Shown here: one piece after another, positions 1 to 60,710 of the stretch
Position numbering within the stretch: the stretch's first letter is position 1
Layout of the letters: each line of letters starts with the position of its first letter
Made by a program: the position numbers and the translations under genes
Source of the DNA: an uncultured Gemmatimonadaceae bacterium
Lineage (GTDB): Bacteria; Gemmatimonadota; Gemmatimonadetes; Gemmatimonadales; Gemmatimonadaceae
Assembly: GCA_963790305.1 (NCBI GenBank)
Contig: CAWBOC010000009.1
Coordinates: 64,001-128,000 of the forward strand
Length of the DNA stretch: 64,000 bases
Direction of reading: 5' to 3'
The notes under the pieces: model-generated
What the model was told of the DNA's origin: nothing
What the model saw: only the letters and a program-made list of their open reading frames with translations
The model's database searches: none

Positions 1-1585
1 TGGCTTGTGCGGATCGAAGTCCGGTGGGAGCGGCCTGCCTAACCGCTCGGACAGCGCGCCATAGGAGCCGATTGCCACAGTGTGCTGCCCATTTCGATCG
101 CATACCCAGATCGGCAGTGGCGTGCCCCAGTACCGGTCACGCGAGAGCGCCCAGTCGATGTTGTTCGTGAGCCACTCGCCGAAGCGCTTCTGTCCCATCT
201 CCGGTGGGGTCCAGTTGACGCGGGCGTTGCGCGCCAGCATGCGATCTCGATACGCCGTGGTACGCACGAACCACGAGTCGCGCGCGTAATAGAGGAGAGG
301 TGTTCCACAGCGCCAGCAATGTGGATACGGGTGTTCGATCGTCCCCGCCTTCCAGAGCGTGCCGCGATGGCGTAGCTCCTCAATGATCAGCGCGTCCGCA
401 TCCTTCACGAACTTTCCGCCGATGACGGGGAGATCCGCGGGGAACTCCCCGCGGCCGTCAACCGGCTGGAGGAAGGCGAGCCCGTGGCGACGCCCGGCGG
501 CGTAGTCGTCGGCGCCGAACGCCGGCGCCATGTGCACGATCCCGCTGCCATCTCCGGCCGAGACGAACGACTCCGTCACGATGAGCTCGTGCTTCCCCTC
601 GCCGTACGGCACCCAGTCGAGCGGACGCCGATAGCGAAGCCCTTCGAGCGCCGCACCGGGCATACGCTGCACGATGCTCCAGCGGTCGGTCCAGTCGTCG
701 CCTAACACCGCCGCCGCGCGCGCCTCGGCGAGAATGATCGTTCCCTCATTCTCGCGATCGCGCCTCACGAGCTCGAGATAGGTGAGCTCGGGATGAACGG
801 CCAGCGCGACGTTGGAGACGAGCGTCCAGGGAGTCGTAGTCCAAACCAAGACTCTACGAGAATGCGGAATGCGGGATGCGGAAGTGCTTTCACCGCTATT
901 CCGCATTCCGGATTCCGCATTCAGCTCCAAGGCGATGTAAACACTGGGATCGCGCACGTCTTCGTATCCCTGCTTGACCTCGTGGTCCGACAGCGCCGTG
1001 CCGCACCGCGGGCAATACGGAAGGATCTTGTGCCCGCGGTAGAGCAGATCCTGACCGTGCAGCGTCGCCAGCGCCCACCACACGCTCTCGACGTAGTCGT
1101 TCGTGTAGGGTGACGTACGCGTCGTCGTAATCGAGCCAGTATCCGATGCGCGCGCTGAGGCGCTCCCAGTCGGCGCGATACCTCCACACGCTCTCGCGGC
1201 AGAGCTGGTTGAACCGCTCGACGCCAATCTCCTCGATCTGCTGCTTTCCGCTGATGCCGAGCTGCTTCTCGACCTCGATCTCCACCGGAAGCCCGTGCGT
1301 GTCCCACCCCGCCTTTCGCAGGACGCGGTAGCCCTTCATCACGCGGTACCGACAGAACAGATCCTTGATCGTGCGCGAGAAGACGTGGTGGATGCCGGGC
1401 TTTCCGTTCGCCGTCGGCGGGCCCTCGAAGAACACGAAGTTCTCTCGGCCCTCCCGCGCCTCGAGCGTACGCGCGAGAATGTTCTCCTCGGTCCACCGCG
1501 CGAGCATCTCCTCCTCGAGCACACTCGGAAGCTGCTCGGGCGGGAGTGCACGATAGTGCGTGACCGGCTGGTCGACGGCGGTCAC
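1..1585 (-). CDS. ileS: Isoleucyl-tRNA synthetase, type 2 (IleRS2); 5' part, runs off the window; one frameshift near 1110
   Basis: [16 protein letters not shown] and [10 protein letters not shown] in ORF 896-1585. Manual translation past the indel at about 1110 gives [62 protein letters not shown], and stays open to base 1. Confidence 0.97.
860..922. repeat. Heptamer-armed palindrome (GAATGCG x3 / CGCATTC x3), in frame inside ileS
   Basis: GAATGCG GAATGCG GGATGCG GAA-15 nt-TTC CGCATTC CGGATTC CGCATTC; length 63 bp. Confidence 0.92.
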
Positions 1586-26152: not shown

Positions 26153-26226
26153 TAGCAGGGGCGGGACTCGAACCCGCGACCCCGGCATTATGAGTGCCGT
26201 GCTCTAACCAGCTGAGCTACCCTGCC
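26153..26226 (-). tRNA. tRNA-Met (CAT), elongator type; CCA not encoded
   Basis: GGCAGGG TA GCTC AGCTGGTTA GAGC A CGGCA CTCATAA TGCCG GGGTC GCGGG TTCGAGT CCCGC CCCTGCT A. Confidence 0.93.
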
Positions 26227-26270
26227 AGAAACCTGAAACGGCCGGCCCTTTTAGGACCGGCCGTCTGCAA

Positions 26271-26344
<74 letters not shown>

Positions 26345-26387: not shown

Positions 26388-26453
26388 GAATGCGAAAAGC
26401 GGAATGCGGAACCAGATGCAGTAAAAACCTTCCGCATTCCGCCTTCCGCATTC
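26388..26453. repeat. Heptamer-armed palindrome (GAATGCG family)
   Basis: GAATGCG AAAAGCG GAATGCG GAA-18 nt-TTC CGCATTC CGCCTTC CGCATTC; 4 bp past the ftsB stop. Confidence 0.9.
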
Positions 26454-26457
26454 CGTC

Positions 26458-37872: not shown

Positions 37873-37957
37873 CGAATGCGGAATTGCGGAATGCGGAGTT
37901 GAAACTCGCGCACAGAATCGTGTTTTCAGTCGTTCCGCATGCCGTATTCCGCATTCG
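37873..37957. repeat. Heptamer-armed palindrome (GAATGCG family)
   Basis: C GAATGCG GAATTGCG GAATGCG GA ... TTC CGCATGC CGTATTC CGCATTC G; 4 bp past the acyl-CoA dehydrogenase stop. Confidence 0.88.
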
Positions 37958-48260: not shown

Positions 48261-48415
48261 GAGCTAGGGGTCAGGAGTCAGGAGTCAGGGATGGAAAGGC
48301 AAACGGCCGCGCAGCGCGCGGCCGTTTGCTCATCCGATGAGTGCCGCACGCGCGAAGCGCGGCGGCACCTTTCCTCCCCTGACCCCTGACTCCTGACCCC
48401 TGACCCCTTACTCCA
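48258..48415. repeat. Heptamer-armed multibranch hairpin upstream of valS
   Basis: TAGGAGC TAGGGGT CAGGAGT CAGGAGT CAGGGAT GGAAAGG ... CCTTTCC tcc CCTGACC CCTGACT CCTGACC CCTGACC CCTTACT; three internal hairpins. Confidence 0.88.
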
Positions 48416-57022: not shown

Positions 57023-58558
57023 ATGCCGCGCGCGCTCCTGTCGGTATCGGACAAGAACGGCTTGACCGAGTTCGCTCGCGGGCTCGTCGCTCTCGGGATG
57101 GGAGCTGATCTCGACCGGCGGAACCGCGCGGGCCCTCCGCGAGGCGGGCCTGTCGGCCACCGACGTCGCGAGCGTCACCGGGTTTCCCGGAGATGCTCGA
57201 CGGTCGGGTCAAGACGCTTCATCCCAAGATTCACGGGGCGCTGCTCGCGCGCCGCGACTCGCCAGAGCACATGCGCGCGCTCGCCGAGCACGAGATTCAG
57301 CCGATCGATCTCGTGGCGGTGAATCTGTATCCATTTCGCGAGGCGGTGTCGCGTCCCGACATCGCGCCGGAAGACGCCATCGAGCAGATCGACATCGGCG
57401 GCCCTTCAATGCTCCGCTCGGCAGCGAAGAACTTTGCATCGGTGTACGCGATCGTGGATCCGAGCGACTATGCGCGCGTTCTGGCTGCGCTGGCGGCGGC
57501 GGATGATGACCTCGATCTGCGCCGCCTGCTCGCCGGGAAAGTGTTCGCGCACACTGCCACGTACGATGCGGCAATCTCGGCGTGGTTCGCGGCGCGGCGT
57601 GGCAATGTCTTCCCCGAGCACATGACGCTGGGGCTGCGAGCGCGCGCAGACCCTGCGGTACGGGGAGAATCCAGACCAGCGTGCGGCCTTTTACGTCGAG
57701 CGCTCAGGTGCTGGACTGGCGAGTCTCGAGCAACGCGGCGGCAAGGAGCTTTCGTTCAACAATCTCCTCGATCTCGAGGGCGCGTTGCTCGCGACCGATC
57801 CTTTTGGCGAGCAGGTCGCCTGCGCGATCGTGAAGCATACGACGCCATGCGGGCTGGCGGTGGGGCGCGACGCTCTCGATGCGTATCGTAAGGCGCTCGC
57901 GTGCGATCCCGTATCCGCATTCGGATCGGTGATCTCGCTGACGGTGCCCGTCGAGGAAGCCGCCGCGGAAGCGATCTCGAGCCTGTTCGTGGAATGCATC
58001 GTGGCTCCTGGCTTCTCGGAGGGCGCGGTGGAGATCCTCGGACGCAAGAAGAACCTTCGCGTGCTTCAGGGCACCGCGCCGTGGCCGCGTGCCTCGGCCG
58101 ACCTGAAGCGAGTTCGTGGTGGCTTGCTGGTGCAGGAGCGCCCGGCGGCCATGGGCGCGTACGAGACGTGGCAGGTCGTCACGCGCCGCACTCCGACCGA
58201 TGCCGAGCGTGACGACCTCCTGTTCGCCTGGCGCGCCGTCGCCACCGTCAAGTCCAACGCGATAGTGCTGGCGCGCGACGGCGCGACCATCGGGATCGGG
58301 GCGGGCCAAATGTCCCGCGTGGACGCGTCCTTTCTCGCGGTGCACAAGGCCCGAACCGCGAGCCACGCGACATCTGGCGCGGTGCTGGGTTCGGATGCGT
58401 TCTTTCCGTTCCGCGACGGCGTCGATCAGGCGGCCGAAGCGGGCATCACCGCCATCGTCCAACCCGGCGGCTCCGTTCGCGATGCCGAGGTGATCGCGGC
58501 GGCCGATGAGCACGGGATGGCGATGGTCTTCACCGGGCAGAGGCAGTTCAGACACTGA
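57023..58558 (+). CDS. purH: Bifunctional AICAR transformylase/IMP cyclohydrolase; several indels
   Basis: [56 protein letters not shown]. Confidence 0.96.
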
Positions 58559-60595: not shown

Positions 60596-60710
60596 GAACG
60601 GCAAAGAGAACAGCAATACAGAATACGGAAACGACCACGGGGAGCCATGACTGGCTCCCCGTCGGTTTTGTCTGAATTCTGAATTCTGCAGGCTGTCATC
60701 TTTGCCGTTC
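60596..60710. repeat. Heptamer-armed hairpin between convergent genes
   Basis: GAACGGCAAAGA ... CAGAATA CGGAAAC ... ACGGGGAGCCA-tgac-TGGCTCCCCGT ... TCTGAAT TCTGAAT TCTGCAG ... TCTTTGCCGTTC. Confidence 0.88.

Follow-up and report, generated by a model that had tools for sequence, protein, structure and literature searches.

A heptamer-armed hairpin in frame in the isoleucyl-tRNA synthetase gene of a Gemmatimonadaceae bacterium shares its repeat family with S23p-type gene cassettes

A 63-bp palindrome built of heptamer repeats lies in frame within ileS, the gene for isoleucyl-tRNA synthetase (IleRS), of an uncultured bacterium (GCA_963790305.1; here G000) of the Gemmatimonadaceae, a family represented largely by soil metagenome-assembled genomes. 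The stretch analyzed, hereafter the window, comprises 64,000 nucleotides (positions 64,001 to 128,000 of contig CAWBOC010000009.1, here C9) of a 4.31 Mb genome that is 94% complete and assembled in 13 contigs with 66% G+C. A sequence-only reading of the window had noticed the palindrome and compared it with the palindromic elements of Rickettsia; the observation was confirmed here and the interpretation was partly supported. The finding is real, extends beyond a single insertion and is partly explained. With a probability of about 0.72, we read the element as a gene-less miniature of a cassette carrying an S23p-type (PF05635) gene, which would reside in a tolerant loop of ileS, be translated there, and have been overwritten or re-seeded in each lineage.

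A repeat finder resolved positions 860-922 into two 24-nt arms, 92% complementary to each other, around a 15-nt loop (Table 1). The minus-strand ileS frame passes through the element stop-free and is preserved in both conserved flanks, with the resulting 21 residues placed directly before the WTTTPW motif of the editing domain. Coordinates, sequence and open frame agree with what the sequence-only reading had given, and the intergenic copies that it named at 26388 and 37873 are real hairpins of the same GAATGCG family. The query GAATGCGGAATGCG (up to two mismatches) had 12 matches in the window against 0.84 expected, a number reached by none of 100 shuffles. Folded as RNA, the 63 nt gave -36.8 kcal/mol on the mRNA strand (z -7.3; none of 200 shuffles as stable) and -44.3 kcal/mol on the opposite strand (z -9.0). 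Comparison of the window with Rfam returned two tRNAs only, and the hairpins matched no family. Structural modeling of the loop, which had been proposed as a check, was performed with AlphaFold using a 29-sequence alignment (mean predicted local distance difference test score, pLDDT, of 80). The insert occupies model residues 64-84, between strands 49-63 and 85-91, and was predicted to be disordered, with no secondary structure and a pLDDT below 50 at residues 68-81. IleRS of Thermus thermophilus (1ILE) aligns on either side of the insert and has a shorter loop.

ileS occurs once in G000, where it is read in three frames owing to an extra base near window positions 1106-1110 and another at C9:63461. 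Both breaks are probably assembly errors rather than signs of a dead gene, because G000 has a single extra, frame-breaking base at eight sites of the window (1110, 35235, 40508, 42106, 43349, 52530, 52962 and 57637) that is absent from every aligned relative: from all three aligned congeners at seven sites, and at 57637 from G004, which alone aligned there. The resulting rate of approximately one +1 error per 7 kb, consisting of insertions only and extending beyond homopolymers, looks typical of an unpolished long-read assembly. Public soil-metagenome runs were also compared, with incomplete coverage of the region (the best run contains just 0.21 of the sampled words); the letter at 1106 is missing from near-identical contigs of runs X1 and X2, and X5 spans the place without showing the deletion. 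In one X2 contig that spans both flanks of the element (755-846 and 898-964), 51 letters are replaced by 66 different ones, and the net gain of 15 leaves the frame intact. The two frame changes, the error rate of the window and the lack of an identical independent contig across the element could together suggest that the element is misassembled or ileS a pseudogene. This is the least probable of the explanations considered, given that G000 has no other ileS, that both changes are single bases which relatives lack, that eight independently assembled genomes have inserts at the same site, and that soil DNA covers both flanks with a variant insert.

The ileS hairpin is one of many in G000. Copies of its family were counted by a strict arm-loop-arm pattern, and a second detector scored 7-base periodicity independently of the unit. 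The strict pattern returned 120 paired elements of 41-146 bp with conserved arms and unrelated centers, a lower bound for the size of the family. The periodicity detector returned 538 blocks, including 103 on contig C9 vs 3 after triplet shuffling; adjacent blocks formed 129 inverted vs 9 direct pairs, and the G-rich arm was 5' in 125 of the 129 inverted pairs. By unit, the inverted pairs fell into two major families, GGAATGC (58, plus 6 GGATTGC) and GGGGTCA (47), and minor ones. No target motif was seen at the flanks of these pairs, and no target-site duplication either, with flank identity at chance level (no identical nucleotide in 76 pairs, one in 42, two in 9 and three in 2). Based on crude gene calls, in which shadow open reading frames (ORFs) may inflate the convergent class, 34/47 GGAATGC and 28/43 GGGGTCA hairpins with an adjoining gene 3' end lie no more than 10 nt from the stop codon (median 4 nt). 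Several hairpins separate convergent genes, each of which terminates at one foot of the hairpin, and sometimes the TGA that ends the palindrome is the stop codon of both genes.

Tandem GAATGCG units read as GAA, TGC, GGA, ATG, CGG, AAT and GCG, and their complement as CGC, ATT, CCG, CAT, TCC, GCA and TTC, with no stop codon in any frame of either strand. The complement of GGGGTCA contains TGA, which makes arrays of at least three such units unreadable in every frame, and only one of the 47 strict GGGGTCA hairpins lies within even a crude stop-to-stop ORF. The sequence-only reading had proposed that three heptamers per arm preserve the frame by themselves. This does not hold, as the copies of 41-146 bp include every remainder modulo three; the 3n length of copies within genes is the outcome of selection and not of the heptamer arms.

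Ten long ORFs of G000 that span a hairpin were compared with Pfam, and six of them have domains flanking or spanning it. The hairpin lies between the homocysteine and pterin domains of MetH, between the two ATPase domains of an ABC ATPase, and inside a DUF1800 gene, a GNAT acetyltransferase, an E1 dehydrogenase (E1_dh) and a NagB/PIG-L fusion. Two further ORFs are ambiguous (an HlyD/ABC junction and the region after an M1 peptidase domain), and the remaining two, at C9:238349 and C9:527076, lack any Pfam match and were not retained as genes. The DUF1800 hairpin combines a GAATGCG left arm with a right arm of GATTGCG type, as would be expected from partial conversion.

The ileS insert is not private to G000. 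The gene was present in all 40 relatives searched, and all eight congeners (G001-G008, which together with G000 form the genus set of nine) have an insert at the same site. The spacing between DPSVY and WTTTPW is 31-39 aa in the genus (31 in G000) apart from 22 aa in G004. Outside the genus it is 15-26 aa in 91 of 97 evaluable loci and 28-48 aa in the other six; one of these 97 rows comes from the unpublished G015, and its removal left the result unchanged. The repeat unit at the site differs between species: GAATGCG in G000, GATTGCG in G008, the same with a 33-nt internal deletion in G004, GGAACGA/GGAATGA/GGACCGA in G002 and G007, GGACCGA in G003, and degenerate units in G005, G001 and G006. 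Scored against 500 codon-order shuffles per genome, the hairpin is strong in G000, G008, G002 and G007 (z -4.2 to -5.6, matched by 0-2 shuffles) and moderate in G003 and G006 (z approximately -2.5), and none of 14 scored loci from other genera reaches z -2. The sequence-only reading would have been refuted by relatives with equally long loops that are not palindromic in the DNA. This was not the case: the loops of 22-39 aa are hairpins in six of the nine genomes, G000 among them, and decayed hairpins in the other three. Two expanded ileS loops outside the genus have repeats of their own: an AAGGTCT x3 direct array in G016 (locus L023) and, in locus L035 of a Gemmatimonadaceae metagenome-assembled genome, a long hairpin (-73 kcal/mol) whose 5' arm is G-rich.

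Three of the other coding sites are equally fixed in position. The metH hairpin lies at the same linker position in 8/8 evaluable genomes (z -2.5 to -8.3; G008 was left out, as a contig end falls within its repeat), and the E1_dh and DUF1800 sites are occupied in 9/9 genomes each. Together with the nine ileS sites, 35/35 evaluable sites are open and in frame despite differing lengths. This argues indirectly but strongly for translation of the inserts: wherever length changed, at any of the four sites in the nine genomes, the frame was retained and no stop arose, and neither ribosome bypass nor excision would require that. The opposite view, in which the insert goes untranslated because it is skipped by ribosomes or cut from the RNA, could draw on the stable stem-loop within the coding region and on the GGA codons in its arms. 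We take the likeness of this stem-loop to the bypass elements of phage T4 gene 60 and of yeast mitochondria to be superficial. Bypass or excision needs neither 3n length nor the absence of stops, yet all 35 inserts have both, and the stop-bearing GGGGTCA family is kept out of genes; an untranslated insert is therefore very improbable.

Most coding-site hairpins carry the heptamer family that is abundant in their own genome. At metH, E1_dh and DUF1800 the unit is GAATGCG in G000, G006 and G001, GATTGCG in G002 and GACCGAG in G003. In G007 it is GATTGCG at metH and DUF1800, with an E1 hairpin of GGAATGA type; in G004, G005 and G008 it is mostly NACTGCG, the E1 hairpin of G005 being GGAATGA/GGAGTGA-like. 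These E1 types of G007 and G005 were not among the units counted genome-wide. Genome-wide, GAATGCG has 421 matches in G000, 215 in G006 and 151 in G001 (9-29 elsewhere); GATTGCG has 266 in G002, 198 in G004 and 117 in G007; GGACCGA has 222 in G003 (at most 27 elsewhere); and NACTGCG, counted as three units, has 535 in G008, 257 in G004 and 184 in G005 (0-16 elsewhere). Since units at fixed sites mostly follow the active family of the genome, the hairpins would have been overwritten from other copies or re-seeded. Slow compensatory drift, locus by locus, would not track the genome in this way and is thus ruled out as the main cause.

Orthologous intergenic sites show turnover of hairpin families. 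The site at 37873 carries a different hairpin in each of three genomes (GGAATGC in G000, TACTGCG in G004 and GGGGCCA in G002); in G003 a remnant is left. At 26388, G000 has GGAATGC, both G003 and G004 have hairpins of GGAACGA type, and G002 has a clean empty site (TGAA|ACCT). At 48265, the GGGGTCA hairpin including its center is common to G000, G004 and G002. The empty site in G002 shows that each hairpin is gained or lost as one discrete unit, with no duplication of the target. Growth of the arms in situ by slippage was rejected as the whole story, being contradicted by this empty site and by the existence of cassettes with the same arms.

Such turnover could also mean that each lineage acquired its hairpins independently, with the ileS, metH, E1 and DUF1800 sites acting as insertion hot spots. 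Unrelated families at orthologous intergenic sites, one of them empty, are compatible with this, as are the ileS loops that other genera expanded themselves (the hairpin of L035 and the direct array of L023). At metH, 15 of 17 scored other genera lack a hairpin, and the distant genus represented by G045 (locus L183) has a GAATGCG-type hairpin at the same site (z -7.0); a purine-rich hairpin occurs in G048 (z -3.5). The linker is of similar length in these 17 genera, and the metH hairpin thus appears to have taken the place of native sequence rather than adding length. Independent acquisition would, however, require the same codon position to have been struck in four genes and in at least four lineages, with 0/35 sites left unoccupied and with neither a target motif nor a target duplication to guide it. 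The G004 ileS insert, as an internally deleted form of that of G008, also points to descent. We regard independent acquisition as unlikely.

Alternatively, the hairpin could be selected for a function in the ileS transcript or DNA: ribosomes might pause at it between the Rossmann half and the editing domain, or RNase III cleavage at it might tie mRNA lifetime to translation. A strong ileS hairpin persists despite sequence change in four of nine genomes, metH hairpins have z of -2.5 or lower in all eight, and intergenic copies begin a median of 4 nt past stop codons. RNase III is also known to cut the 28-bp terminal stem of S23p-bearing intervening sequences in 23S rRNA, according to the Coxiella burnetii account (PMC4990558). 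In three of nine genomes, however, the ileS hairpin has decayed and the gene was kept, most Gemmatimonadaceae manage without it, and selection at a single locus would not make units track genome-wide families. A selected function is accordingly even less likely than repeated independent insertion.

The same arms bracket protein genes. G000 has six PF05635 matches, four of which are flanked by an upstream G-rich array and its downstream complement, one for each of four hairpin families (Table 1). Genus-wide, 19 of 30 PF05635 loci examined have arrays on both sides vs 0.23% of 200,000 random 315-bp intervals of G000. The GAATGCG-armed cassette on contig C10 encodes a member of a divergent PF05635 subfamily (41 bits, above the cut-off); its gene has one frame change in G000, of the kind common in this assembly, and is intact in G004. 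In this subfamily, arrays lie on both sides of 6/9 loci, and their units match the families of the genome. The flanking units are GATTGCG in G002, TACTGCG and GATTGCG in the two cassettes of G004, TACTGCG/AACTGCG, RRCTGCG and GGAACGA in G008, and GGAACGA on one side only in G001. Proteins from TACTGCG cassettes of G008 and G004 are 91% identical and those from GATTGCG cassettes of G002 and G004 70% identical, vs 51-53% for two cassettes with different units within one genome. By these identities, cassette proteins cluster by heptamer unit and not by genome. PF05635 resembles (PMC10053308) Avd, a nucleic-acid-binding accessory protein of diversity-generating retroelements, a likeness that would fit an array-binding role and nothing beyond.

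Candidates for a conventional mobilizer were considered and rejected. RAYT/Y1 transposases (PF01797) were not found in G000 and occur in 3/9 genus genomes, where none is bracketed by arrays and one has a single heptamer array upstream. Reverse transcriptases (PF00078) were not found in G000, leaving no enzyme for templated retro-rewriting there. Wider intervals from a G-arm to a C-arm contained EF-Tu (C9:409231-410560) or an E2 acyltransferase and an alcohol dehydrogenase (C10:203000-206500), with no transposase seen in either, and three shorter ones are S23p cassettes. The tuf gene in the first of these intervals has a separate GAATGCG hairpin on each side.

Overall, the 63 bp in ileS would be a gene-less miniature of the GAATGCG-armed element whose full form brackets an S23p-type gene. 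The copy lies between two beta strands of IleRS, in a loop whose length varies naturally, and would be read through by the ribosome as a disordered 21-residue peptide, tolerated rather than needed. Arrays that are stop-free on both strands and in all frames, together with selection for 3n length and a stop-free loop, would permit its residence. The site would have been occupied already in the genus ancestor, and the hairpin would then have been overwritten or re-seeded repeatedly by the heptamer family active in each lineage, through ectopic conversion or re-insertion and not through slow compensatory change. One possible route is breakage of hairpins followed by repair from ectopic copies.

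Several points weigh against this account. The translation of the insert is deduced from sequence. Decay has removed the ileS hairpin from G005, G004 and G001 (z approximately 0), no genus genome has an empty ileS site, such that insertion there is deduced from other genera, and the ileS unit of G002 and G007 comes from a family that is minor in both. The metH linker is equally long in hairpin-free genera. In G003, which has 222 GGACCGA matches, no cognate cassette was found with the divergent-subfamily query, and its single PF05635 locus has no arrays. In G000 itself, ileS has two +1 frame changes, the first of which X5 covers without the deletion, and no independent contig in the public runs carries the identical 63 bp or spans 856-912 unchanged.

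A further proposal is tentative, and we would not yet lean on it: S23p-type proteins may be sequence-specific partners of heptamer arrays, each variant maintaining its own hairpin family by copying or rewriting without a RAYT or reverse transcriptase, reaching essential genes and placing hairpins near stop codons. If true, loops of IleRS, MetH and other enzymes would be recoded in each lineage at the level of DNA and not by selection on the protein. The proposal offers a testable hypothesis, namely that every variant of the protein has a single heptamer unit as its cognate.

Table 1 Features of the window and of the G000 genome discussed in the text (plain positions refer to the window; C numbers denote G000 contigs).
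Feature	Position	Strand	Remark
ileS, 5' part	1-1585	-	gene continues past the window start to about C9:62290
Heptamer-armed hairpin, 63 bp	860-922		in frame in ileS; minus-strand reading gives 21 residues
Arm 1	860-883		GAATGCG GAATGCG GGATGCG GAA on the plus strand; 3' arm on the mRNA strand
Loop, 15 nt	884-898
Arm 2	899-922		reverse complement of arm 1, 92% complementary
Single extra base breaking the ileS frame	1106-1110	-	probably an assembly error; absent in three aligned relatives and in near-identical contigs of 2/3 covering runs
Intergenic GAATGCG-family copy	26388-26455		begins 3 nt past a stop codon
Intergenic GAATGCG-family copy	37873-37956
Hairpin of the second heptamer family, GGGGTCA/GGAGTCA arms	48265-48414		conserved center; orthologous in G004 and G002
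Further GGGGTCA hairpins with the conserved center	C1:154367, C5:703885, C5:861200, C6:364090, C6:372519
Nested GGAATGC hairpins	C2:9213, C2:103370, C2:186407, C5:99082, C6:279307, C8:54024
Hairpin inside DUF1800 gene	C10:146893-146980
S23p-type cassette	C5:70659		GGGGTCA arms
S23p-type cassette	C7:167475		GGAGTGG arms
S23p-type cassette	C9:163389		TCAGAAT arms
S23p-type cassette	C10:203511		GAATGCG arms; element C10:203194-203843

Several hairpins have additional internal structure. In the GGGGTCA subtype listed in Table 1, two GC-rich stem-loops that flank the small palindrome CTCATCNGATGAG make up the conserved center. Some GGAATGC hairpins enclose a second, nested palindrome (GTAAGACC...GGTCTTAC) and often a third inside it (GAGGGCTCCG...CGGAGCCCTC), as if elements had lodged in one another's loops. 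Within the window, two tRNA genes at 26153-26344 directly adjoin the hairpin at 26388, and a lone short array of the TCAGAAT family (GTCTGAATTCTGAATTCTGCAG) occupies 60670-60691.

The literature searched, which did not extend to subscription journals and supplements, contained no paper on heptamer hairpins in Gemmatimonadota, none on their in-frame translation and none that ties them to S23p genome-wide. In behavior, the family comes closest to the Rickettsia palindromic elements (RPE; Ogata et al. 2000, summarized in the review PMC10969869), which bears out part of the process suggested by the sequence-only reading; the ileS copy is neither a private nor a recent insertion, its site being occupied genus-wide. 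RPE are dispersed palindromes of approximately 100-150 bp, defined by conserved sequence families and an encoded peptide, that are found within the reading frames of unrelated housekeeping genes, where they contribute a peptide compatible with the fold. In-frame insertion of this type, in loops compatible with the fold, was found here in ileS and six further genes. As described, RPE are nevertheless set apart from the 63-bp element with its tandem-heptamer arms, variable center and Gemmatimonadaceae host: the copies found here share heptamer arms only and have unrelated centers, their unit is rewritten between species at fixed sites, and a protein gene can occur between their arms. Palindromic repeats within reading frames, until now a peculiarity of Rickettsia, would thereby become known from a phylum of free-living soil bacteria and with another repeat architecture, and peptide loops of essential enzymes may change in concert with the repeat family of the genome. 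For annotation, such inserts should not be taken for frameshifts, pseudogenes or misassemblies.

In architecture, the arms resemble the GGGAATC heptamers of Xanthomonas (Rehm et al. 2015, PMC4692102), which form 70-75 convergent inverted pairs per genome, lie mostly between genes at 0-50 bp from a stop codon and overlap ORFs in 7-11% of cases. Tandem heptamers of GG(G)A type, few units per array and convergent pairs near ORF ends are common to both, the last being a regular feature of G000. The Xanthomonas repeats were read as G-quadruplex formers, a reading that is not transferable to GAATGCG, which has GG only and lacks a tract of three to four G per unit; the GGGGTCA family of G000 would supply one. 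The accessible part of that account makes no mention of translated in-frame hairpins, of rewriting at orthologous sites or of a link to S23p.

The existence of a cognate gene recalls the repetitive extragenic palindromic (REP) elements, their doublets (REPIN) and RAYT (Nunvar et al. 2013, PMC3686654), in which each repeat family has a cognate gene flanked by its own repeats. Several hairpin families per genome, restriction to strains or lineages and replacement of variants are further likenesses. The cognate gene described there, however, encodes a Y1 transposase and not a PF05635 four-helix bundle, and REPIN are inverted doublets of an imperfect 20-40 nt palindrome with a conserved GTAG-type head, whereas the elements here are tandem heptamers without such a head. 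Miniature inverted-repeat transposable elements (MITE) combine terminal inverted repeats with a target-site duplication; the arms here are inverted and the duplication is absent. Longer forms with the same arms exist and carry a PF05635 gene rather than a recognized transposase, and the family, whose arms also bracket S23p-type genes, is not a plain MITE.

The 23S rRNA intervening sequence (IVS) of C. burnetii (Warrier et al. 2016, PMC4990558) offers the nearest parallel for the cassettes. It consists of an S23p ORF within terminal inverted repeats and is excised by RNase III at the 28-bp stem noted above; tandem GACAGAT heptamers adjoin the ORF and vary in number among strains. A PF05635 ORF within inverted terminal repeats, tandem heptamers and residence in an essential gene without loss of function recur in the Gemmatimonadaceae family, although the ileS copy itself has no ORF. 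Unlike the IVS, which lies in rRNA and is excised, the hairpins described here number in the hundreds, are mostly gene-less, and follow stop codons or lie in frame in protein genes, with no indication of excision. Taken together, these comparisons link three separate puzzles: the heptamer repeats of bacterial genomes, the S23p/Avd-like four-helix bundles and the intervening sequences of rRNA.

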